64,000 bases of DNA from Massilia sp. (GTDB lineage: Bacteria > Pseudomonadota > Gammaproteobacteria > Burkholderiales > Burkholderiaceae_D): positions 8,917 through 72,916 of the forward strand of contig JANNNC010000045.1 of the NCBI GenBank assembly GCA_031398335.1, written 5' to 3'. Numbering within the stretch: position 1 is the first letter of the stretch; each line of letters opens with the position of its first letter. The notes below the pieces were generated by a model. It was not told the DNA's origin, searched no databases, and saw nothing but the letters and a program-made list of their open reading frames with translations. Both the position numbers and the translations under genes were made by a program. Shown here one piece after another: positions 43,588 to 56,294 of the stretch.

Positions 43588-44354
43588 TCGGCCGCGCCCG
43601 CAGGCACACTAAAACCGTTGCGCGCCAGGATCGCGCGCGCCTCGGGGGAAGCCAGGAAGCGCACGAAGCCGCTTGCGTGCGGATTGGCGGCGCCGGCCCT
43701 GGTCACGATCGCGCCTTGCTCGATCGGAGACAAGCCGGTCGATGGCACCAGCGCATGGCGGCCGACGCCTTTCAACCTGGTCGCATGCAGGGTGGCAAAC
43801 GAAATGATGCCGACTTGCGCATTGCCGGTCTGGACGAACTGGGCGGTCTGGGCGATGTTTTCGCCGACCACGAGTTTCGGTTGCACCTTGTCCCAGAGAC
43901 CATCGCGCACCAGGGCTGCCTTGGCCGCGCGCCCATACGGCGCCGTGACCGGGTTGGCGATCGCCACCCGTTTGACACGCTCATCGGCGACGAGGGCGGC
44001 CAGGCCACGGGCAGGATCGACCTGCGGGTCCAGCGTCCACAGCGCGATGCGGCCGATGGCATACGGCACCAGGGTGGCGCCGTCGGCGACGCCGAGCTTG
44101 CCGAGCTGGCGCGGGTAGTCCATGTCGGCCGACAAAAACACCTCGAAGGGGGCACCGTTGCGAATTTGTGCAAAAAAGTTGCCGGATGCGCCAAGCGAGA
44201 CCTTCGGCTCGACATCCGGCGCCGTTTTCCGGTACGCGGCGACGAGTTCATCGATACAATAGCCGAGATCGCTGGCAGCGGCGACCAGCAGCGGGCGCGC
44301 CAGTGCCGGTCCTGCCAAGGTCCATGCCAGTAATAAAATAAGCAATTTTTTCAT
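43584..44354 (-). CDS. modA: Molybdate ABC transporter periplasmic binding protein
   Basis: Start at ATG 44354 gives signal peptide MKKLLILLLAWTLAGPALA. 'SLGASGNFFAQIRNGAPFEVFLSAD'. ATGA-type overlap with modB. Confidence 0.85.
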   Translation of the reverse strand: MKKLLILLLAWTLAGPALARPLLVAAASDLGYCIDELVAAYRKTAPDVEPKVSLGASGNFFAQIRNGAPFEVFLSADMDYPRQLGKLGVADGATLVPYAIGRIALWTLDPQVDPARGLAALVADERVKRVAIANPVTAPYGRAAKAALVRDGLWDKVQPKLVVGENIAQTAQFVQTGNAQVGIISFATLHATRLKGVGRHALVPSTGLSPIEQGAIVTRAGAANPHASGFVRFLASPEARAILARNGFSVPAGAAE

Positions 44355-44434
44355 GCTGAACATTGTAGCGCGGGGCGCATCTCTCTCGGATGTCGCTTCG
44401 TTACAATGCTCACCTGTTTTCCAGAATAATTCCC

Positions 44435-46516
44435 ATGTCCAACGCACCAAAATTCGGCCTGAACGGGCCGCAAAGCGAAGCCGCGCTTTATCTCGACGGC
44501 CCCTGCCTGGTGCTGGCCGGCGCCGGCTCGGGCAAGACACGCGTGATCACGCAAAAGATCGCCTACATGATCGAAGACCGCGGCTACGATCCGCGCACGA
44601 TCGCCGCCCTGACGTTTACCAATAAAGCCGCGCTCGAGATGCAGGAGCGTATCGCCAAATTGCTGAAACAGCCGAAGCAGGCCAAGCAGTTGACGGTGTC
44701 GACCTTCCACTCGCTGGGTGTGAAAATCCTGCGCCAGGAAGCGGCCGGCGTCGGCTTGAAAGACCGTTTTTCGATCATGGACAGCGACGACTGCTACACG
44801 ATCGTCTCCGACCTCGGCCTGACGACCGATAAGCAGGAAATCCGCCGCATCCAGAATGCGATCTCGCTGTGGAAGAACGGCCTGATCGACCCGGAAGCTG
44901 CCATCAATGCCGCGAAAGACGAGGACGAAGCCCAGGCCGGACGCATCTACCGCAGCTATGTGGCGACGCTGGCCGCCTACCAGGCGGTCGACTTCGATGA
45001 CCTGATCCGCCTGCCGGTGGAACTGTTCCGGAATAACGATCCGATCCGCGACCGCTGGCAGAGGAAGCTGCGCTACCTCTTGATGGACGAGTACCAGGAC
45101 ACGAATACCTGCCAGTACGAGCTGGTGAAATTGCTGGTGACGGGCATCGGCAAGAAGCCGATGTTCACGGCGGTCGGCGACGACGACCAGGCGATCTACG
45201 CCTGGCGCGGCGCCTCGGTCGAAAACATCAAGACCCTGCAAACCGATTTTCCCGACCTGCGCGTGATTAAACTCGAGCAGAACTACCGCTCGACCACGCG
45301 CATCCTGCAGGCGGCCAATGCCGTGATCGGGAATAACCCGAAGCTCTTTGAAAAATCGCTCTGGTCCGAACACGGGTTAGGTGAGCCGATCAAGGTGCTG
45401 GGCATGCAGAGCGACGAGCAGGAAGCCGACCAGATCGCGATCATGATTTCGTCGGACCATTTTCAGCGCAAAAATAAATGGACCGATTTCGCGATCCTTT
45501 ACCGCGGCAACCACCAGGCCCGCATCATCGAGCAGGCGCTGCGCAAGGAGCGCATTCCGTACACGATTTCCGGCGGCCAGAGCTTTTTCGACAAGGCCGA
45601 GATCAAGGACATCATCGCCTACCTGCGCCTGATCGCAAACGAGGGCGACGACCCCGCGTTTATTCGCGCGGTGACGACGCCGAAACGCGGCGTCGGCATG
45701 GCGACCCTGGAAGTGTTGGGCGAATTTTCCAAACAATGGAATTGCTCGCTGTTCGAGGCGGCGCTCAAAGGCGGCATCGAGGGCAAGCTGGCCGATCGCC
45801 AATTACACCCGCTGCGCGATTTCTGCCATTTCATCAATGAACTCGAATCGCGCGCCAGCCGCCCGGGGCCATCGGGCAGCGGAGAACATGCCGCCGAGGT
45901 ACTGGACGACATGATGAAAGAGATGAACTACGAGCATTACCTGTACGAGAACTTCGATGACCGCGCCGCCCAGGCGAAATGGCAGAACGTGATGGAGTTC
46001 ACCAACTGGCTCAAGGAGCGCGGCAACGGCGGGCGCGACGGCACCGGCGACGAGAAGAATTTGCTGGAGCTGACGCAGATGGTGGCGCTGATGTCGATGC
46101 TGGAAGGCCAGGACGAAGAGCAGGACGCGGTGCGCATGTCGACCCTGCACGCCTCGAAAGGGCTGGAGTATCCGCACGTCTACCTGGTCGGCGTGGAAGA
46201 GGGGATCTTGCCCCATAAAGGCGACCCGGATGACCCGATCGAAAAGATCGCCGCGCGCATCCAGGAAGAGCGGCGCCTGATGTACGTCGGCATCACGCGC
46301 GCCCAGCGCACGCTGCACGTCACCTGGTGCAAGAAGCGAAAGCGCGCCGGCGAGCTGGTGCACTGCGACCCTTCCCGCTTCATCAAGGAGATGGCGCTCG
46401 ACGAGGGCATTGCGGTGCCGCTCGAGTCCGAGGTGATCAGCCCGAAGGACCGCCTGGCGAGTTTGAAGGCGCTGTTGAATACCCCGAAGCCGGATGCCGC
46501 CAAGCTGCTGTCATAA
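44435..46516 (+). CDS. rep: UvrD/Rep family ATP-dependent DNA helicase (Rep-like)
   Basis: 'GAGSGKTRVIT', 'LLMDEYQDTN' and 'VGDDDQAIYAWRGA'. Start at ATG 44435. Confidence 0.85.
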   Translation: MSNAPKFGLNGPQSEAALYLDGPCLVLAGAGSGKTRVITQKIAYMIEDRGYDPRTIAALTFTNKAALEMQERIAKLLKQPKQAKQLTVSTFHSLGVKILRQEAAGVGLKDRFSIMDSDDCYTIVSDLGLTTDKQEIRRIQNAISLWKNGLIDPEAAINAAKDEDEAQAGRIYRSYVATLAAYQAVDFDDLIRLPVELFRNNDPIRDRWQRKLRYLLMDEYQDTNTCQYELVKLLVTGIGKKPMFTAVGDDDQAIYAWRGASVENIKTLQTDFPDLRVIKLEQNYRSTTRILQAANAVIGNNPKLFEKSLWSEHGLGEPIKVLGMQSDEQEADQIAIMISSDHFQRKNKWTDFAILYRGNHQARIIEQALRKERIPYTISGGQSFFDKAEIKDIIAYLRLIANEGDDPAFIRAVTTPKRGVGMATLEVLGEFSKQWNCSLFEAALKGGIEGKLADRQLHPLRDFCHFINELESRASRPGPSGSGEHAAEVLDDMMKEMNYEHYLYENFDDRAAQAKWQNVMEFTNWLKERGNGGRDGTGDEKNLLELTQMVALMSMLEGQDEEQDAVRMSTLHASKGLEYPHVYLVGVEEGILPHKGDPDDPIEKIAARIQEERRLMYVGITRAQRTLHVTWCKKRKRAGELVHCDPSRFIKEMALDEGIAVPLESEVISPKDRLASLKALLNTPKPDAAKLLS

Positions 46517-46755
46517 TGCCCGCACTTGAAAAAATGCCAGGAACCGCCGTGGAACACGAAGACCGTTTTGTCGATATCGAAATCAAGCTGGCGCACATGG
46601 AAGACCTGGTCGACTCGCTGAACCAGACCGTCTACCAGCAGGCGCGCCGCATCGACCAATTGGAGGCCATGGTGCAGCAGCTGGCCGAGCACCTGCGCAC
46701 GATGCGCGAGGTCGGGCGCCAGACGCCGGTGAACGAGCGCCCGCCGCATTATTGA
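46516..46755 (+). CDS. slyX: SlyX family protein
   Basis: Coiled-coil 'RFVDIEIKLAHMEDLVDSLNQTVYQQ..QLEAMVQQL'. TAATG overlap with rep. Alternative start at 46534. Confidence 0.7.
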   Translation: MPALEKMPGTAVEHEDRFVDIEIKLAHMEDLVDSLNQTVYQQARRIDQLEAMVQQLAEHLRTMREVGRQTPVNERPPHY

Positions 46756-46823
46756 TGCGGTGCGTGAATTGCGTCGAAGCGACGTAAGCCGAGACGCATA
46801 TTCAACCACTGCGGTAGCGCACC

Positions 46824-48119
46824 CTACAATTTGCTAGTGCCGAGCGACTCGCCAAGCCGCTTGCCCAAACAAAGTAAGGTCACCGTCGGCGGCAGCCCCC
46901 ACGGCTCCGGAATCACCGACGCATCGCACACGAACAACCCCGGCGTGGCCGTCTGCAAATTTGCATCGACTCCCTCCCCGATGCGCACGCTGCCGCCCGG
47001 ATGCGCCGCGAAATGCCAGGATGTAAAGATGTGATGCGCCCCCGCCTCGCGCAGGATCGCCTTCGCCATCCCGACCCCATGCTTCAATTTTTGACGGTCG
47101 CTGTCCTGCAGCGTTTTATCCGCCCAGCGCGGCCCGACGCGGCCGCCGATGGCGTCGCGGATCTTGACCATCATCGACAGGGTGCGCCGGTGCGCAAACA
47201 GGCGGTCGACGCGGCCGACCTGCAGCGCAAAGGCCTGGTACATCGGCTGCGGCAGGGTCAGGTCGGCCAGGGCGACGCCTGCGTCATGTAAATGCAGGCC
47301 GCCCGCCATCGGCACCTCGGCGCCGCCGTCGATGTCGTCCACGCTGCCCATCACCGCCACCACCGGATCGCTGAAGAAGGGAGATTCGCGCGGTCCCAGG
47401 CCTGAACTGTGCAACAAGCGCGGGCTACCGAGGCCGCCGCCGGCGAGCACGACGATCGGCGCGAACAGGGTGCGCAGCTTGCCGCCCACCTGCACCTCGA
47501 CCCCGGCCGCGCGGTCCCCTTCCACCAGCACCCGCAGCACGCGGGCACGGTCGACCAGTTGTGCGCCGTGGCGGCAGGCCTCATCGAGAAAATCGCGCGC
47601 CGTCCACTTGGCGCCGAACGGACAGCCGTAGACGCAGCGCCAGCAGCCGCTGCGGCAGGACGCGGGCCGGATCATTTTTTCCAATTTTTGCCAGTCGAGC
47701 GACAAGGCGCGCGCCGCCGTCATCATGCGCGCCGCCATCGGGCCAATTAACTTGTCCGGCAGGGGGGCCATCGGCAGTTCGGCGCGCAAGGCGGCGAGCG
47801 CCGGTTCGAGATCGATGCCGTAGCGCGCGAACAGCGCCTGCGGCGGCGGGGCGGCGGTCGCAAAATTGATGGCCGAGCTGCCGCCGGCCGTGATGCCGGC
47901 CACCAGCAGCGAGGCGTCGCGCTGCACATACGCGCCCTTGCCGGGGACCGCGGCCATGCCCGCCATCTGGCCAAGCGTCCCCTTCAAGGGGTCGGCGCCG
48001 CCCTGTTCCAGCACCAGCACGCGCATGCCGGCTTGGGCCAGTTCGCGCGCCGTGCTGGCGCCGCCCGGACCGCTTCCGACGACGATCGCATCATACGAGG
48101 ACTGAAAAATAGGAAGCAT
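46824..48119 (-). CDS. GMC-type FAD-dependent oxidoreductase
   Basis: Start at ATG 48119. 'YDAIVVGSGPGGAS' FAD-binding motif. 431 aa. Confidence 0.75.
   Translation of the reverse strand: MLPIFQSSYDAIVVGSGPGGASTARELAQAGMRVLVLEQGGADPLKGTLGQMAGMAAVPGKGAYVQRDASLLVAGITAGGSSAINFATAAPPPQALFARYGIDLEPALAALRAELPMAPLPDKLIGPMAARMMTAARALSLDWQKLEKMIRPASCRSGCWRCVYGCPFGAKWTARDFLDEACRHGAQLVDRARVLRVLVEGDRAAGVEVQVGGKLRTLFAPIVVLAGGGLGSPRLLHSSGLGPRESPFFSDPVVAVMGSVDDIDGGAEVPMAGGLHLHDAGVALADLTLPQPMYQAFALQVGRVDRLFAHRRTLSMMVKIRDAIGGRVGPRWADKTLQDSDRQKLKHGVGMAKAILREAGAHHIFTSWHFAAHPGGSVRIGEGVDANLQTATPGLFVCDASVIPEPWGLPPTVTLLCLGKRLGESLGTSKL
48079..48102. repeat. Direct repeat copy 1 (ACGACGATCGCATCATACGAGGAC)
   Basis: 24/24 identical to 50325-50348. 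It lies inside the 5' end of the oxidoreductase gene (encodes SSYDAIVV on the minus strand). Confidence 0.95.
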
Positions 48120-48224
48120 GGCGGGAAGGGCGGTTGGGTGCCCGATGCTAGCACGCGCAGCCGCGGTTCCCACGCGTTCCCAAGTTTTCAATGCCAGTTT
48201 CGAGTCTTGCTGTGGCAGGAGTCA

Positions 48225-48437
48225 CTACATACCCGTATTGGCTGGCCACGGGGTGAAAAGAGCAAGAACTGCATTGCTGCCAGAAATCGTCACGCCCATG
48301 CCTTGATACTGATTCGTTATCGGGGTCTGATCAGAAAATTCATCGAATGTCAGCGTGATCGGCTCCGCCCACAGGTGAGCAGAAAAACCTGCCAACAGAG
48401 CAAGGCTGCCGGCGAAAGTAGCGATACGGTTGCTCAT
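48225..48437 (-). CDS. Small secreted protein fragment (70 aa), possibly truncated
   Basis: ATG 48437 follows AAGGAG. Signal peptide MSNRIATFAGSLALLAGFSAHLWA. It ends abruptly after ~45 mature residues. Confidence 0.4.
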   Translation of the reverse strand: MSNRIATFAGSLALLAGFSAHLWAEPITLTFDEFSDQTPITNQYQGMGVTISGSNAVLALFTPWPANTGM

Positions 48438-48702
48438 TGGAATGCTCCTTAACAAGATTTGCATCCCTTGCAAAACGTCAATGTTATGGGGGAGCATGAG
48501 CTTCGACTTCGACTAGAGTGGACCTCCACCGGCCATGACGATCAATCAGCGACACTAAATTTTTTCGCCTACGCCGGTTCCATCACGCAGTCCAACTGGT
48601 TTCTACTTGAGCTGATGTACTACACCGACGCAGGATAGGCTTTCGCCACTACTTGTAATGCAAGCTCGGATGGCGCCGGCGCGAGCAGAGCGGCAGGCCC
48701 GT

Positions 48703-48725
48703 AAAAAACGCCCACATCGTGGGCT
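48703..48725 (-). terminator. Rho-independent terminator after the antitoxin gene
   Basis: On the minus strand: GCCCAC-GAT-GTGGGCG followed by T6. Confidence 0.75.
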
Positions 48726-48729
48726 TGGT

Positions 48730-49044
48730 TCAGAGCGCGGCGATCTCGTCGAGCAACTTGGGGTTGCGATCCATCAGGCTCAGTAGGATGGCGGCCTGGG
48801 CATTCGGCTTGGCGGTGCCCTGCTCCCAGTTCTTGATGGTGCGCGCCTCGGTTCGCAACCGGCGTGCGAACACAGGCTGAGACACGTGGAGCTTCTCGCG
48901 CACAGCGCGGACCCTAGCCGGTGTCATTTCCGGCGGAGCCTTGCGCTCTACTTCCGAGGTGCGGAGCGTAGCCTTTCCCTGGCGCGCGCCTTCCAGGGCG
49001 TCGAAGCCTTCCATCAGGTCGGAAAAAATATCTCGCTTGGTCAT
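48730..49044 (-). CDS. XRE-family HTH antitoxin (HigA-like)
   Basis: 104 aa. HTH '..VREKLHVSQPVFARRLRTEARTIKNWEQG..'. ATGA overlap with the toxin gene upstream. Confidence 0.8.
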   Translation of the reverse strand: MTKRDIFSDLMEGFDALEGARQGKATLRTSEVERKAPPEMTPARVRAVREKLHVSQPVFARRLRTEARTIKNWEQGTAKPNAQAAILLSLMDRNPKLLDEIAAL

Positions 49045-49387
49045 TTTTTGGCACTCCTTGCCTTGATTTCTGCTTCAAGACGCTGCTTCAGCATCTTGCG
49101 TTGGTCCGGGGTGAGGTCGTGCGCTTCGTCCTTGTCGTAGACGGTGAACAGCCAGAACTGGTCGGCCGCATCCTTCCAGAAGTAGATGATGCGCAAGCCG
49201 CCGCGCTTCCCCTTGCCGCGCCGTTCGTCGGCATACCTGATCTTCCGTAGCCCCCGGTCCCCTTGATCACGTCGCCGGCCTCGGGGTCCTTCATCAGCTC
49301 GCTCTGCAGCTCCTTGAACGATGCGTCGTCGAAATATTCGTCGCGCAAGCGCTGAAAAGGAGGGAGCTCGATAAAGGTGGCTTTCAT
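49041..49387 (-). pseudogene. RelE/HigB-like toxin, disrupted by a 1-nt frameshift
   Basis: The N-terminal half 'MKATFIELPPFQRL..DPEAGDVIKGTGG' (frame of ORF 49088..49387) continues as 'LRKIRYADERRGKGKRGGLRIIYFW..FWLFTVYDKDE' in the frame of ORF 49041..49400. The switch occurs at the G/C run around 49248-49256. Confidence 0.7.
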
Positions 49388-49492
49388 GTAGTGAACCCAA
49401 GTTGGGGATATAAGGATGGCTTTTTTTTGTAACTCGTTGCGGAAACTCCGCTATTTGCGGGGTTTCCGGCCTCCATTGTCCGCTGCGGGATG

Positions 49493-50071
49493 CTACCGAG
49501 CAAGGGCTTCCGATGCAGGTTTTACAACCCTCATCACGCTGGCACGGGAGACACCATAGGTGCGTGCCAAGGAGCTGATCGATTGGCCAGTCTGATGCTG
49601 CTGTAGCATTGCCGCCCGCTGGGCATCCGTCGTGCTGGCTGGGCGGCCCAAGGTCTTGCCCTCAGCCTTCGCCCGCGCCAGGCCGGACTGGGTGCGTTCC
49701 ACCAGCAGATCGCGCTCCATCTCGGCCACGGCGGCCAGCATCAGCTTGCCGGCGGCGCTGGTGAGGTCGAGCTTCCCCAGCTGCAGGACGATGACCTCAA
49801 TGCGGCGAGCGGCCAGCGCCTTGATCGTGGCGCCGACGTCCTGGGCATCACGGCCGAGGCGGTCGAGCTTTGTCACCACCAAGGTTTCGCCGTCGCGGAT
49901 CTGGCTGAGCATCTTGGCGAACTGCGGGCGCTGCGCCGCCGAGACCTTCCCCGACACGCCCTCGTCGGCATGCCAGAAGTCGATGGCATAGCCGGCCGCC
50001 TCGATCTCCCGGCGCTGGTTCTCCGTCGTCTGTTCCTTCGTGTTGACCCGGCCGTATCCGAAAATTGCCAT
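49493..50071 (-). CDS. Resolvase/invertase-type serine recombinase homolog with Asn at the catalytic Ser position
   Basis: 192 aa. 'GYGRVNTKEQ' against the consensus 'GYxRVSTxxQ'. 'KLDRLGRD' is conserved. C-terminal HTH. Confidence 0.85.
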   Translation of the reverse strand: MAIFGYGRVNTKEQTTENQRREIEAAGYAIDFWHADEGVSGKVSAAQRPQFAKMLSQIRDGETLVVTKLDRLGRDAQDVGATIKALAARRIEVIVLQLGKLDLTSAAGKLMLAAVAEMERDLLVERTQSGLARAKAEGKTLGRPASTTDAQRAAMLQQHQTGQSISSLARTYGVSRASVMRVVKPASEALAR

Positions 50072-50087
50072 TTGCTCTCACTCCGTT

Positions 50088-50127
50088 GTCCAAGGACGTC
50101 CAATAGCGTCCAATAACGTCCATATTA
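50088..50127. repeat. Four phased 10-bp repeats GTCCA(A/T)NNNN upstream of the recombinase
   Basis: GTCCAAGGAC, GTCCAATAGC, GTCCAATAAC and GTCCATATTA run in tandem. They are followed by the perfect palindrome TGAACATGTTCA (50131-50142). Confidence 0.8.
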
Positions 50128-50324
50128 CATATGAACATGTTCAAAAGTAAGTAGACTATTTTATGAACATTTCAGAGCACGGCCGAGCCGACCTGTCCAC
50201 AAACGGTCGATTGTGGTTAGGCAGGCTCGCCTGACTGCTCAGCTGTGTACAATAGTTTGCCCAGCTTCGGCAGACGGTATATAGCCGAGCAGTTCCCGCG
50301 TCGGTGGTGAGCCAGGAAACCCCT

Positions 50325-50348
50325 ACGACGATCGCATCATACGAGGAC
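50325..50348. repeat. Direct repeat copy 2 (ACGACGATCGCATCATACGAGGAC)
   Basis: 24/24 identical to 48079-48102. It lies 60 nt downstream of the msrA stop. Confidence 0.95.
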
Positions 50349-50408
50349 CACAAATGGGGTGCTTGGCGGGAAGCACTCCCTTGACCACGCGGATGCGATG
50401 CGCTCGCA

Positions 50409-50930
50409 TCAGGCGCGATGGGGCAGTTTCCAGTCGGGCCGCACGAAGTGGCACGTATACCCGTTCGGTATGCGTTCCAGGTAATCCTGGTGCTCCGGCT
50501 CGGCTTCCCAGAATGGGCCTGCAGGCGCGATCTCGGTGACGACCTTGCCGGGCCACAGGCCGGATGCGTCGACGTCGGCAACGGTGTCCTCGGCCACGCG
50601 CCTTTGCTCATCATTCAGGTAAAAAATGGCGGAGCGGTAGCTGACGCCGAGGTCGTTGCCCTGGCGGTTGGGTGTGCTCGGGTCGTGAATCTGGAAGAAA
50701 AATTCCAGGATCTGGCGCAAGCTGATCCGGGCCGGATCGGACACGACTTCGAGCGCTTCGGCGTGCGTGCCATGGTTGCGGTAAGTCGCGTTGGGCACGT
50801 CGCCGCCGGTATAGCCGACGCGGGTGGACAGTACGCCGGGCTGGCGGCGCAGCAGCGCCTGCATGCCCCAGAAGCATCCGCCTGCCAGGATGGTGGTTTC
50901 AGTGTGCGCGGTCATCGTCGATTCTTTCAT
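50409..50930 (-). CDS. msrA: Peptide-methionine (S)-S-oxide reductase
   Basis: '[11 protein letters not shown]' active site and 'GYTGG..PNATY'. The start is ambiguous (50930 or 50915). Confidence 0.9.
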
Positions 50931-51073
50931 TGTGGTGGAAGGCCGCATCCTGCGCGGTGTTAAGTACTCGACCGGAAATAAATGTGAATTCTGGCAGCCA
51001 AAACACATTTATTTTTGGGCGAGTACTTTAGCGCTTCATGATAACGGCTCCTCCCGTTTGAACGCGCACCGCC

Positions 51074-51766
51074 TTATTTTTTCGCCGGCAGCACCGTCCG
51101 CAAGCCATGCGTCACCACCAGCGGAAACACGCTCGCATGGTCCTCGTCCGCAAACCCCTTTACTTGCGTGCGCAGGGCCGGATAACGGTACGCCTTCAAG
51201 GCAGTGTCGAACTCGCGCAGGTCGGCCAGCATGTCGGCGTCTTCTTCAAGCCGCGCGCGCTTCTTGCCGGGCGCGAGGGTTTCGCGGCTGCCGATGCCAA
51301 AATAAACGGTCGCCGGCAGCTCGCGGTGGCGCTCGCCGTAGGCTTCCAGGCGGTCGAACATCACGCCGGCGTCGTACCAGAGCGAGGGGCTGCCGAGGAT
51401 GTAGTGCTCGAACAGGCGCGGTTCCGTGAACAGGATCTGCAGGCCGAGCAGGCTGCCGTAGGAATGGCCGACGAAGAACTTGCGCTTCATGTCGGCGCGG
51501 TAGTCGTGCTTGCGCGGCACGGTCGGCGTGTCGTCGCGGCGGCGGCTGAACGTCCCCGTGTCGCCCTTGGCGTAGGACAGGCCGACCACGATCGTCTCTT
51601 CCATGCCCGCATGTTTGCTCAGGCGCTGCGAGATGTTGCGCACGACCGGAAAGGCGTAGTTGGCGTCGGTGACGAACACCACCGGGTACTCGCGCGTGCC
51701 CTCGCGGTAGGAATCGGGCAGGGCGACGAAGACCTGGTAAACATCTTTGTATGCAGTTTGTTTCAC
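51074..51766 (-). CDS. Alpha/beta hydrolase (putative esterase, IroE/esterase-D-like)
   Basis: 'YPVVFVTDANY' and nucleophile 'VGHSYGS'. 230 aa. Confidence 0.7.
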   Translation of the reverse strand: MKQTAYKDVYQVFVALPDSYREGTREYPVVFVTDANYAFPVVRNISQRLSKHAGMEETIVVGLSYAKGDTGTFSRRRDDTPTVPRKHDYRADMKRKFFVGHSYGSLLGLQILFTEPRLFEHYILGSPSLWYDAGVMFDRLEAYGERHRELPATVYFGIGSRETLAPGKKRARLEEDADMLADLREFDTALKAYRYPALRTQVKGFADEDHASVFPLVVTHGLRTVLPAKK

Positions 51767-51858
51767 TGTGCCGGCACGACAATAAGCCTGCTATGATCTG
51801 GCGCGCATCTGCCCGCGGCGATCCCGCGGCAGCCTTTTTCGTGTCCGTGAGAGAGACC

Positions 51859-53994
51859 ATGAATCGTCCACAAATGCTCATCATCGCAGCCAGCCTGGCC
51901 GTCGCCGGCGCCGCCTTCGCAGCACCCGCCGGATCCGGCACCGTGCTCGACGCCTCGAACCCCTTTGCCAAGCCAAGCGCGCTGCCGTTCAATTACCCGG
52001 CCTTCGACAAGATCAAGGACGAGCACTTCCTGCCGGCCTACGCTGCCGGCATGCGCGAGCAGCTGCGCGAAGTGGCCGGCATCGCCAACAGCGCCAAGGC
52101 GCCGACCTTCGAGAATACGATCGTCGCCATGGAGCGTTCCGGGCAGATGCTCTCGCGCGTCTCGGCCGTGTTCTCGAACCTGCAGACCGCCAACACGAAC
52201 GACCGCCTGGACGCGGTCGACCGCGAGATGTCGCCGAAACTGGCCGCCCACAGCGATGCGATCTACCTGAACCCGAAGCTGTTCAAGCGGGTCGAGACCC
52301 TGCACGCCAAGCGCGACAAGCTGGGCCTGGATGCGGAAGCGACCTTCCTGCTCGAGCGCTACTACAAGGAATTCGTGCGCGCCGGCGCCAGACTCTCCGG
52401 CGCCGACAAGGAAAAGCTCAAAGCCTATAACGGCCAGATCGCCTCTCTGCAATCGGACTTCTCGCAGCGCGTGCTGAAGGAAGCGAATGCCTCGGCGCTG
52501 GTGGTAAACACCCGCGCCGAACTAGCCGGCCTGTCGGACGCCGAGATCACTGCCGCCGCCGCCGAAGCAAAGAAGCGCGGCCTGGACGGCAAGTACGTCA
52601 TCGGCATCGCCAACACCACGATCCAGGCGCCATTGGCCAGCCTGACGAATCGCTCGGTACGCGAGCGCCTGCAAGCCGCCTCGATGAACCGCGGTAGCCG
52701 GGGCGGCGAGTTCGACACGCGCGAGCTGGTCCTGAAACTGGCGAAGCTGCGCGCCGAACGCGCGACCCTGCTCGGCTACCCGAACTACGCCGCCTATTCG
52801 CAGGAACTGGAAACGGCGAAGAACCCGGCCGCCGTGAACAAGCTGCTGGCCGAACTGGCCAAGCCTGCAATCGGCAACGCCCGGAAAGAAGCGGCCGAGA
52901 TGCAGAAGATTGTCGACGCCCAGAAGGGCGGCTTCCAGGTCGCCGCCCACGACTGGGCGTATTACACCGACAAGGTGCGCGCGGCCCAGTACAACTTCGA
53001 CGAGAACCAGCTGCGCCCGTATTTCGAGCTGAACAACGTATTGGTCAATGGCGTCTTCTTTGCCGCGACCAAGGAGTTCGGCATCACGTTTAAAGAGCGC
53101 AAGGATTTGCCGGTCTACGACCCGGACGTGCGCACCTTCGACGTGTTCGACCACGACGGCAAGCAGCTGGCGATCTTCCTGTTCGATCCCTACGCACGCG
53201 GCAATAAGCAGGGCGGCGCCTGGATGAACGAATACGTGTCGCAGTCTCACCTGCTGGGCAAGCATCCGGTCGTGGGCAACCATCAGAACATCCCGAAGCC
53301 GCCTGGTGGCGAGCCGACCCTGCTGACCTACGACGAAGTGCGCACCATGTTCCACGAGTTCGGCCACGCGCTGCACGGCATGTTCTCGAACGTGAAGTAC
53401 CCGCATTTTTCGGGCACCAGCGTGCCGCGCGACTTCGTCGAGTATCCGTCGCAGGTCAACGAGATGTGGGCGATCTGGCCCGAGGTGCTGTCGAACTACG
53501 CCAGGCACCATAAAACCGGCGCGCCGATGCCGAAGGAATTGCTCGATAAGGTCATCGCGTCGAAAAAATTCAACCAGGGCTTCATGACCAGCGAATACCT
53601 GGCCGCGTCCCTGATCGACCAGCGCTGGCACCAGCTGACCCCGGCGCAGATCCCGACTGACGTGCTGGCCTTCGAAGCGGCCTCGCTGAAGGGCGCCGGC
53701 GTCGACTTCGCCCCGGTGCCGCCGCGCTACCGCACGACCTATTTTTCGCACTCGATGAACGGCGGCTACTCGGCCGGCTACTACGCGTACCTGTGGAGCG
53801 AAAAACTCGACGCCGACACGGTCGAGTGGTTCAAGGAAAACGGCGGCCTGTCGCGCAAGAACGGCGACCACTTCCGCAAGACCCTGCTCTCGCGCGGCGG
53901 GACCACCGAGGCGATGAACCTGTTCAAGGATTTCCGCGGGCGTGATCCGGTGATCGAGCCGCTGCTGGAACGCCGTGGGCTGACCGGTAATTGA
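51859..53994 (+). CDS. dcp: M3 family peptidyl-dipeptidase (Dcp-like), copy 1
   Basis: Signal peptide from ATG 51859 and zinc motif 'HEFGHALH'. 711 aa. Confidence 0.9.
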   Translation: MNRPQMLIIAASLAVAGAAFAAPAGSGTVLDASNPFAKPSALPFNYPAFDKIKDEHFLPAYAAGMREQLREVAGIANSAKAPTFENTIVAMERSGQMLSRVSAVFSNLQTANTNDRLDAVDREMSPKLAAHSDAIYLNPKLFKRVETLHAKRDKLGLDAEATFLLERYYKEFVRAGARLSGADKEKLKAYNGQIASLQSDFSQRVLKEANASALVVNTRAELAGLSDAEITAAAAEAKKRGLDGKYVIGIANTTIQAPLASLTNRSVRERLQAASMNRGSRGGEFDTRELVLKLAKLRAERATLLGYPNYAAYSQELETAKNPAAVNKLLAELAKPAIGNARKEAAEMQKIVDAQKGGFQVAAHDWAYYTDKVRAAQYNFDENQLRPYFELNNVLVNGVFFAATKEFGITFKERKDLPVYDPDVRTFDVFDHDGKQLAIFLFDPYARGNKQGGAWMNEYVSQSHLLGKHPVVGNHQNIPKPPGGEPTLLTYDEVRTMFHEFGHALHGMFSNVKYPHFSGTSVPRDFVEYPSQVNEMWAIWPEVLSNYARHHKTGAPMPKELLDKVIASKKFNQGFMTSEYLAASLIDQRWHQLTPAQIPTDVLAFEAASLKGAGVDFAPVPPRYRTTYFSHSMNGGYSAGYYAYLWSEKLDADTVEWFKENGGLSRKNGDHFRKTLLSRGGTTEAMNLFKDFRGRDPVIEPLLERRGLTGN

Positions 53995-54131
53995 TGGTCG
54001 GTTTGCACGGCCAACGATGCACATTGTTTGCATAACAATGACATCAACGTCATCCCACCGCGACCCACACATTTTTCCCGCGTAGGCCCCCAACCTGCGC
54101 ACTCCTGCAACACATAATCAAACGAGACTTC

Positions 54132-56294
54132 ATGAACCGTCCTCACCTCCTGCTGCTTGCCGCCAGCGTCGCCGTGGCCAACCTGGCCTATGCCCAGCCG
54201 GCCACGCCTGTCGTGCCCGCAACGCATACCCAGCCCGCCACGGCCTTCGACGCGTCGAACCCGTTCGCCGCCAAGAGCACGCTGCCGTTCGAATACCCGG
54301 CCTTCGACAAGATCAAGGACGAACACTTCGGCCCGGCCTACCTGGAAGGCATGCGCCAGCAGGCGGCCGAGATCGAGGCGATCGCCAACAACAAGGCGGC
54401 GCCCACCTTCGACAACACGATCGTCGCGATGGAGCGCTCGGGCCAGCTCCTGAACCGCGTCGGCGTCGTCTTCGGTACCCTGTCCGGCTCGTACACCAAC
54501 GACACCCTGAAAGCCCTGGACAAGGAAATGGCGCCCAAGCTGTCCGCCCACAGCGACGCGATCCGCCTGAACCCGACACTCTACGCGCGCATCAAGGCGC
54601 TGTACGACAAGCGCAGCAAGCTCAAGCTCGACGCCGAGTCCGTCTACCTGCTCGAGCGCTACCACACCGATTTCGTGCGCGCCGGCGCCAAGCTGTCGAA
54701 CGCGGACAAGGAAAGGCTGAAGGCGTATAACAGCCAGCTGGCGACCTTGCAGACGACCTTCGCGCAAAACGTGCTGAATGAATCGAATGCGTCGGCCCTG
54801 ATCGTCGACACCCGGGCGGAACTGGCCGGCATGTTGGATAAACAGATCGACGCTGCCGCCGTCGAAGCGAAGAAGCGCGGCAAGGACGGCAAGTTCGCCA
54901 TCCCTGTGGTGAACACCACCGGCCAGGCCGGCCTGTCGGTGCTGACCAATCGCGCGACCCGCGAAAAGCTGCTGGCGGCGTCCATCGCACGCGGCTCGCG
55001 CGGCGGCGAATTCGACAATACGGAAGAAGTCCTGCAAATCGCCAGGCTGCGCGCCGAACGCGCCGCCCTCTTGGGCTACCCGAGCCACGCGGCCTACATG
55101 CTGGAAGACCAGACCGCGAAGAACACGGAAGCCGTCAACAGCCTGCTGGCCGAATTCGCCAAGCCGGCCGTGAACAACGCGCGCAAGGAAGCGGCCGAAA
55201 TCCAGAAGGTGATCGATGCCGAGAAGGGTGGTTTCCAGCTCGCCGCCCACGACTGGGCCTTCTACAGCGACAAGGTGCGCGCCCAGCGCTACGCCTTCGA
55301 CGCGGCGCAGCTGCGTCCCTACTTCGAACTGAACCGCGTGCTGGTCGACGGCGTCTTCTTTGCCGCCACCAAGGAATTCGGCATCACTTTCAAGGAACGC
55401 AAGGACCTTCCGACCTATAACGAAGACGTGCGCACCTTCGACGTGTTCGACGCCGACGGTTCGCAACTGGCCATCTTCACGTTCGACCCGTACGCGCGCT
55501 CGAACAAGCGCGGCGGCGCCTGGGCGAATGCCCTGGTCGGGCAGAGCAGCCTGATGGGCACCAAGCCCGTCATCGCCAACAACCTGAACGTGGCCAAGCC
55601 GGCCGCGGGCGAACCGACCCTCTTGACCTACGACGAAGTGCGCACCACTTTCCACGAGTTCGGCCATGCGCTGCACGGCATGTTCTCGAACGTGAAATAC
55701 CCGCGCTTCTCGGGCTCGCGCGTGCCGCGCGACTACGTCGAGTTCCCGTCGCAGGTCAACGAGATGTGGATGGCCTGGCCGGAAGTGCTGGCGAATTACG
55801 CCAAGCATTACCAGACCGGCGCGCCGATGCCGAAAGAGCTGCTCGATAAAGTGCAGGCCTCGCAGCAGTTCAACGAAGGCTTCCGCACCACCGAGTACCT
55901 CGCCGCCTCGCTGCTGGACCAGAGCTGGCACCAGCTGAGCGCCTCGCAGATCCCGACCGACGTGCTGGCGTTCGAAGCGGCCGCGTTGAAAAAGGCCGGC
56001 GTCGATTTCGCACCGGTGCCGCCGCGCTACCGCACGACCTATTTCTCGCACGTGTTCTCGGGCGGGTATTCGTCGGGCTACTACGGTTACCTGTGGGCCG
56101 AGAAGCTGGACGCCGACACCGTGAACTGGTTCAAGGAAAATGGCGGCCTGACGCGCAAGAACGGCGACCACTTCCGCAAGACCCTGCTCTCGCGCGGCGG
56201 CACGCTGGACGCGATGCAGATGTACCGCAATTTCAGCGGGCGTGATGCGCAGGTGCAGCCGCTGCTGGAGAAGCGTGGGTTGACCGGGCAGTAA
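54132..56294 (+). CDS. dcp: M3 family peptidyl-dipeptidase (Dcp-like), copy 2
   Basis: 720 aa. Colinear with copy 1 and sharing many identical blocks, e.g. 'TYDEVRT.FHEFGHALHGMFSNVKYP'. Has its own signal peptide. Confidence 0.9.
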   Translation: MNRPHLLLLAASVAVANLAYAQPATPVVPATHTQPATAFDASNPFAAKSTLPFEYPAFDKIKDEHFGPAYLEGMRQQAAEIEAIANNKAAPTFDNTIVAMERSGQLLNRVGVVFGTLSGSYTNDTLKALDKEMAPKLSAHSDAIRLNPTLYARIKALYDKRSKLKLDAESVYLLERYHTDFVRAGAKLSNADKERLKAYNSQLATLQTTFAQNVLNESNASALIVDTRAELAGMLDKQIDAAAVEAKKRGKDGKFAIPVVNTTGQAGLSVLTNRATREKLLAASIARGSRGGEFDNTEEVLQIARLRAERAALLGYPSHAAYMLEDQTAKNTEAVNSLLAEFAKPAVNNARKEAAEIQKVIDAEKGGFQLAAHDWAFYSDKVRAQRYAFDAAQLRPYFELNRVLVDGVFFAATKEFGITFKERKDLPTYNEDVRTFDVFDADGSQLAIFTFDPYARSNKRGGAWANALVGQSSLMGTKPVIANNLNVAKPAAGEPTLLTYDEVRTTFHEFGHALHGMFSNVKYPRFSGSRVPRDYVEFPSQVNEMWMAWPEVLANYAKHYQTGAPMPKELLDKVQASQQFNEGFRTTEYLAASLLDQSWHQLSASQIPTDVLAFEAAALKKAGVDFAPVPPRYRTTYFSHVFSGGYSSGYYGYLWAEKLDADTVNWFKENGGLTRKNGDHFRKTLLSRGGTLDAMQMYRNFSGRDAQVQPLLEKRGLTGQ

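Follow-up and report, generated by a model that had tools for sequence, protein, structure and literature searches.

A chromosomal resolvase gene of Massilia with asparagine in place of the catalytic serine, probably a recently inactivated part of a stranded stability module

In the window (the whole 64,000-nucleotide stretch of Massilia sp. DNA analysed here), a gene for a small serine recombinase of the resolvase type lies within a chromosomal islet of ~2.2 kb, with a predicted Tn3-like res upstream and a toxin-antitoxin pair downstream (Table 1). The islet is an extra segment when compared with G015 (apparently Massilia sp. CMS3.1), the nearest islet-free genome, in which a gene for a GMC-type oxidoreductase sits directly beside msrA. 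It is bounded by the 24-bp repeats of Table 1, which duplicate the 5′ end of this oxidoreductase gene.

Table 1. Features of the resolvase islet, in coordinates of the window.
Feature	Position	Strand	Basis or remark
Small serine recombinase (resolvase) gene, 192 aa	49493..50071	-	Pfam, phmmer, and family alignments
Predicted Tn3-like res with three predicted subsites	50107-50219 (113 bp)	-	Family alignment, half-site table
res site I, putative crossover site, 26 bp	50194..50219	-	12-bp inverted halves around central AC
Predicted res site II (TGTTCA-N20-TGAACA)	50138..50169	-	Family alignment
Predicted res site III (TGTTCA-N19-TGGACG), nearest the gene	50107..50137	-	Family alignment
Four phased 10-bp repeats ([A/T]TGGAC-type)	50085..50123	-	Overlap site III and extend toward the start codon
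Left 24-bp perfect direct repeat	48079..48102	+	Within the 5′ end of the GMC-type oxidoreductase gene
Right 24-bp direct repeat	50325..50348	+	Followed by a decayed oxidoreductase 5′ end and native sequence to msrA
RelE/HigB-like toxin gene, frameshifted	49041..49387	-	Two overlapping ORFs, homologue alignment
Intact HTH antitoxin gene, MqsA/NadS-like, 104 aa	48730..49044	-	Start overlaps the toxin stop (ATGA)
Terminator-like hairpin and T-run just past the antitoxin gene	48710..48724	-	

The 24-bp repeat lies within a longer, imperfect duplication (~53 bp) of the 5′ end of the oxidoreductase gene (48079-48131 and 50325-50377). Its two copies agree at 26 of the first 27 bp and at ~65% of the 29 that follow; the ATG survives in the left copy, while the right copy is without a start codon and has a 1-base gap. 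On the left flank, the match to three relatives (G004, G018, and G055) continues to about 48158, and on the right flank the match to G015 starts at 50322. Therefore, with the sequence of relatives on both sides, both flanks of the islet look native. The interval from the oxidoreductase gene to the first M3 peptidase gene (window 46000-52500 compared with relatives) is variable in the genus: G015 has msrA and an esterase gene in it, G043 is without msrA, and G004 is without both, with ~150 bp between the flanks.

The Pfam Resolvase domain (PF00239) covers residues 3-139 of the encoded protein (profile positions 1-144 of 145, E 2.7e-32, 112.3 bits against a cut-off of 23.3), and the phmmer alignment with gamma-delta resolvase is full-length (E 2.5e-21). 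At the C-terminus, the Pfam HTH_7 match reaches 23.2 bits, slightly below the 23.8-bit cut-off, and the alignment with gamma-delta resolvase continues through the HTH of that enzyme, to about residue 181-185. The open reading frame begins ATG GCA ATT TTC GGA TAC GGC CGG GTC AAC ACG, that is, MAIFGYGRVNTKEQ, and codon 10 (50042-50044) is AAC for asparagine, where the family state is AGC or TCN for serine. In the phmmer alignments, Asn10 stands opposite Ser10 of gamma-delta resolvase (2gm4, 1zr2, and 1gdt) and of Gin (4m6f), in the motif G-Y-x-R-V-S-T, so that the nucleophilic serine is absent from the window protein and asparagine occupies its column. An alternative start codon or a misaligned column was ruled out: the conserved GYGRV lies in frame immediately before the Asn, and therefore no other start gives the serine back, and the Pfam and PDB alignments concur. 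The equivalents of Y6, R8, Q14, Q19, D36, S39, R45, D67, R68, R71, E118, R119, E124, and R125 are present, and the 15 remaining catalytic positions are the same as the family consensus. The AGC codon of the relatives and the AAC of the window differ by a single G-to-A transition at base 50043. An earlier reading of this locus, made from the letters alone (hereafter the sequence-only reading), had proposed that asparagine replaces the nucleophilic serine by one transition from AGC in an otherwise intact catalytic pocket, and the alignments to PF00239, gamma-delta resolvase, and Gin, together with the family consensus and the AGC codons of relatives, agree with it on each of these points.

To place the substitution within the family, we followed up a further suggestion of the sequence-only reading and surveyed homologues for serine versus asparagine at this column, which found asparagine in the window protein only. 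Serine occupies position 10 in 119 of 119 nearest database proteins (79-91% identity, drawn from a collection of 5.8 billion proteins and mostly from Massilia and other Oxalobacteraceae) and in all 85 homologues taken from genome loci, with identities down to 65%. When metagenome contigs were scanned for the 26-bp context of codon 10 with either base permitted, two contigs matched and both read AGC. No Asn-bearing clade was found among the 119 database proteins, the 85 genome loci, and the 2 metagenome contigs; Asn10 is a singleton (1 of 196 distinct family sequences, with Ser in all other 195), not a clade feature. In the alignment of these 196 sequences, S10N is the sole private residue of the window protein and also its sole deviation from columns that are at least 97% conserved; apart from S10N, the protein shows no surplus of rare or private substitutions such as decay would leave. 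Other family members have private replacements of their own at other catalytic residues (R8Q, Q14K, Q14P, Q19E, R45S, and R125C), one other member is an N-terminally broken copy, and one relative has a copy with a stop codon (G015:C5). Therefore, inactivation appears to be sporadic and a normal fate in this resolvase family. With the phrases tried, a literature search gave no relevant report of natural serine recombinases without this serine.

The consequences of losing this serine can be judged from laboratory mutants. In Tn3 resolvase, the S10A mutant cleaves DNA at <0.0001 of the wild-type rate, despite the presence of Thr11, and is inactive in recombination, cleavage, and topoisomerisation, while its site I binding and synapsis are only somewhat reduced; in other serine recombinases, too, every mutant reported for this serine lacks activity (PMC2794168). 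The window allele resembles these mutants in that the same position is replaced, and differs from them in being natural and in carrying Asn; the phenotype expected to be shared is the loss of cleavage and recombination with DNA binding mostly kept (PMC2794168). Judging from the homologue mutants, the Asn10 protein almost certainly cannot cut DNA, and it probably folds, dimerises, and still binds res. The claim of the sequence-only reading that the recombinase is dead therefore appears well supported, with the nucleophile column confirmed and mutagenesis of homologues (PMC2794168) pointing the same way. The enzyme could in principle still be active via another nucleophile, for example Thr11, which directly follows Asn10 in an active site that is otherwise intact. 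However, gamma-delta resolvase has the same Ser10-Thr11 pair, and in the closely related Tn3 resolvase the S10A mutant, with its own Thr11, is dead; therefore, the neighbouring Thr is unlikely to act as a substitute, and we regard such residual activity as barely conceivable.

Another possibility is that sequencing or assembly wrongly introduced the A at 50043 and that the true codon is AGC. The allele comes from one draft assembly (224 contigs, with a contamination estimate of 4%) and is one base away from the family state, and the frameshift of the nearby toxin gene lies in a homopolymer run, a context that is miscalled by some platforms. However, divergence of the gene from its nearest relatives amounts to 15-18% of bases, so real substitutions on its lineage should far outnumber the short-read consensus errors to be expected over 579 bp. 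Such an error would, moreover, need to strike exactly this base, and comparable natural hits on catalytic residues are found in other family members, as listed above. We consider an error highly improbable.

The DNA common to family members consists of the gene and ~145 bp upstream of it, and three inverted-repeat subsites are conserved across 37 aligned upstream regions. Site III abuts site II, with the palindrome TGAACATGTTCA at their junction, and the phased 10-bp repeats are common to the nearest relatives (L026, L027, and L032). In site I of the window, the outer left hexamer is TAACCA, three mismatches from the TGTTCA of the family, and the right hexamer is TGGACA; the outer left half-site of site I is also the least conserved half-site family-wide. 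Homology between elements stops at site I, and such a break has likewise been described between Tn3-family transposons (PMC7157771). In ~10 of the 37 upstream regions, TGTTAG/CTAACA (or CCAACA) replaces TGTTCA/TGAACA at sites I, II, and III together. This covariation over all three subsites suggests that the hexamers are the recognition motif of the resolvase, and the three-subsite, Tn3-like organization of the res points to an enzyme that would resolve cointegrates or multimers rather than act as an integrase. No sigma-70-like promoter was found in the res region at the scan threshold; a TTACTT-17-TAATAT pair read by eye in the res is weak and is not relied on.

The window gene is similar to TnpR of Tn3 and gamma-delta in domain order (the PF00239 catalytic domain followed by a predicted C-terminal HTH) and, Ser10 excepted, in its catalytic residues, and the region upstream is similar to their res in its length of ~113 bp, in its three inverted-repeat subsites, and in having site III by the gene and site I distal. 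It differs from them in (i) the Asn at the nucleophile position, (ii) the lack of a nearby Tn3-family transposase gene, (iii) a site I that, as read from the alignment, is 26 bp long (12-2-12) with a non-palindromic central AC, and (iv) the half-site motif TGTTCA, which is specific to the family of the window resolvase.

As for a parent element, no ORF for a Tn3-type DDE transposase was found in 44000-56000 of the window, and no terminal inverted repeats came to notice. Across 85 loci of the family, all-against-all clustering of ORFs gave no recurrent partner gene (transposase or integrase), with no ORF cluster in more than 9 of the loci. Therefore, without a recurring neighbour, the res and its resolvase gene appear to be a self-contained module that is found in many settings. 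At L076 (2744-4333) and about 8 other loci, a gene for an AAA_25 (RepA/DnaB-like) ATPase lies ~0.7-2.3 kb upstream of res; some copies may thus be parts of integrated replicative elements.

Two known arrangements resemble that of the window. On plasmid pSCD of Sulfuricella denitrificans (NC_022358), a resolvase, a HigB-family toxin, and an HTH regulator follow in the same order on one strand, and the recombinase is 64% identical to that of the window; at the DNA level, only the recombinase gene aligns (65% identity), and the toxin-antitoxin genes are likened by gene order. This gene order suggests a plasmid stability cassette, although the pSCD copy is on a plasmid, whereas that of the window is chromosomal, with a frameshifted toxin gene and a resolvase without the serine. 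In Tn3-family transposons, type II toxin-antitoxin pairs are associated with res and lie beside site I (Lima-Mendez et al. 2020, PMC7157771). The window likewise has a type II pair directly beside a tnpR-res unit, but here the pair follows the resolvase gene, at the end away from res.

The toxin gene of the window has lost one base in the G-run at 49251-49255, as judged against the three intact sequences among four aligned Massilia homologues, and its C-terminal piece matches PF06296 RelE with E 3e-4, below the cut-off. The antitoxin matches MqsA_antitoxin with 30.1 bits against a 30-bit cut-off. Elsewhere in the genus, the toxin-antitoxin pair is found without the resolvase. A homologous Massilia toxin gene (L106; G008:C56, about 46674-47381) has a 1-base deletion at a different place (GCCGG-GACG); therefore, inactivation of the toxin with the antitoxin left intact happened independently. 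The islet also holds a 90-aa ORF (48225-48497, minus strand) that has no Pfam or NCBIfam match; its N-terminal hydrophobic, signal-like segment may mark a fragment of a secreted protein. A 35-bp stretch (48628-48662) is 97% identical to L015:3258-3292 and L016:3249-3283, two contigs from soil metagenomes on which the nearest resolvase homologue is also encoded, 2.4 kb away from the match; the stretch could represent a short repeat element or a terminator that they share.

Within its own genome, the resolvase appears to have no substrate pair. The core pattern of site I, with one mismatch allowed, occurs once in the 5.04-Mb assembly (98% complete), and a second res in direct repeat was not found in this assembly. 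No cognate active paralogue was found in the genome either, the best other resolvase being only 34% identical. Therefore, with one res only, there is nothing to resolve, and catalysis is not expected to be under selection. The sequence-only reading had suggested that a dead recombinase would freeze the islet in place. This did not hold, since the res is of the cointegrate or multimer type and is present as a single site, and neither of the 24-bp flanking repeats contains any of the TGTTCA/TGAACA-type hexamers; therefore, the resolvase was probably never the excisionase of the islet. We know of no resolvase-type enzyme that excises from such flanking-repeat sites. Insertion of the islet by the resolvase was also considered and is unsupported, again because the flanking repeats are without half-site hexamers.

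Between the window gene and twelve relatives, pairwise dN/dS was 0.07-0.24, values that do not stand out from those of other family pairs, which span 0.02-0.33 with a median of 0.10. Therefore, the gene seems to have been under normal purifying selection over essentially all of the measurable history of its lineage. The private nucleotide changes of the window gene (4 synonymous and 4 non-synonymous) are comparable to those of its relatives. Relaxed selection was not seen by dN/dS or by the counts of private changes, and 4 plus 4 changes are too few to split a recent loss from retention. These results would be expected from a very recent mutation and equally from a protein that is still under constraint: with no closer relative in existence, neither the low dN/dS nor the otherwise intact protein tells one from the other. 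The dN/dS comparison, which the sequence-only reading had put forward as a way to tell a decaying gene from a retained one, thus yielded values of purifying selection that fit both outcomes. Nothing shows selection for Asn.

We favour, with a probability of about 0.75, a recent loss-of-function missense mutation in a stranded and decaying stability module made up of the resolvase and the toxin-antitoxin pair. By descent, the enzyme would be a genuine resolvase with a Tn3-like res of its own just upstream, and one recent G-to-A transition would have turned its Ser10 into Asn. The module would stand alone in its ~2.2-kb islet with the toxin-antitoxin pair, in a form that resembles a stranded cassette for plasmid or transposon stability, and with a single copy of res the catalysis would be unselected, so that a loss-of-function allele could persist, relaxed selection being the presumed cause. 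The Asn10 protein may still occupy res via the TGTTCA/TGAACA half-sites and may damp its own transcription, without cleaving DNA. Resolvases repress promoters embedded in res and are autorepressors (PMC7157771), and residual autorepression by the Asn10 protein is therefore plausible. Beside S10N, two further signs of decay are seen, namely divergence in the outer left hexamer of site I and the frameshift of the adjacent toxin gene. As counter-evidence, nothing else in the resolvase protein shows decay.

That same lack of other damage leaves room for a different account, in which the Asn10 protein is retained as a dead res-binding regulator. It would repress the resolvase promoter, and perhaps also transcription that reads through into the toxin-antitoxin genes, or it would interfere with incoming cognate elements. 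In favour of this, all residues but Asn10 are typical of the family, with a dN/dS as low as that of the active relatives; sites II and III are undamaged, as are the phased repeats by the start codon; autorepression at res is known for resolvases (PMC7157771); and an intact antitoxin gene lies downstream on the same strand, with the only terminator-like site coming after it. However, Asn10 is a singleton among the 196 distinct sequences and no lineage shows its retention, the substitution tests are powerless to tell a recent change from a retained one, the broken toxin gene and the degraded site I point to decay of the module, and the promoter scan of the region gave no sigma-70-like site. We consider retention as a regulator unlikely. 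The sequence-only reading had offered it as the other possible outcome, that the protein had been kept for DNA binding or regulation, and in this form the idea is possible; positive evidence for it did not emerge. With Asn in 1 of 196 sequences there is no Asn clade that would speak for retention, and a very recent mutation accounts just as well for the otherwise intact protein.

A bolder version, which we regard as a long shot, is that the resolvase without a nucleophile is kept purely as a res-binding protein, either (i) as an autorepressor that sets the level of the orphaned antitoxin or (ii) as a dominant-negative subunit that poisons the resolution of incoming plasmids or transposons with the same res, which would amount to a kind of exclusion function. 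If the protein were kept as a regulator or as a subunit that interferes, nature would offer here an example of a recombinase converted into a DNA-binding protein, but no evidence points there.

The replacement of the nucleophile is thus real but ordinary, and is most simply seen as decay of a stranded remnant of a mobile element. On the favoured account of recent loss, the locus would be a clean example of how a stranded module decays in a chromosome, with a catalytic residue hit, a toxin gene frameshifted, and a crossover site eroded. It may also serve as a warning to annotators, in that "recombinase family protein" here denotes an enzyme that is almost certainly unable to recombine. A by-product of the analysis, maybe the more useful part, is that it defines, for a widespread family of Oxalobacteraceae resolvases, a res whose half-sites covary as TGTTCA or TGTTAG; the records examined annotate this family only generically. 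The sub-family with TGTTAG/CTAACA-type half-sites (L038, L040, L044, L046, L051, L065, L070, L081, L099, and L104) looks like a natural switch of specificity that could be traced to residues of the HTH.
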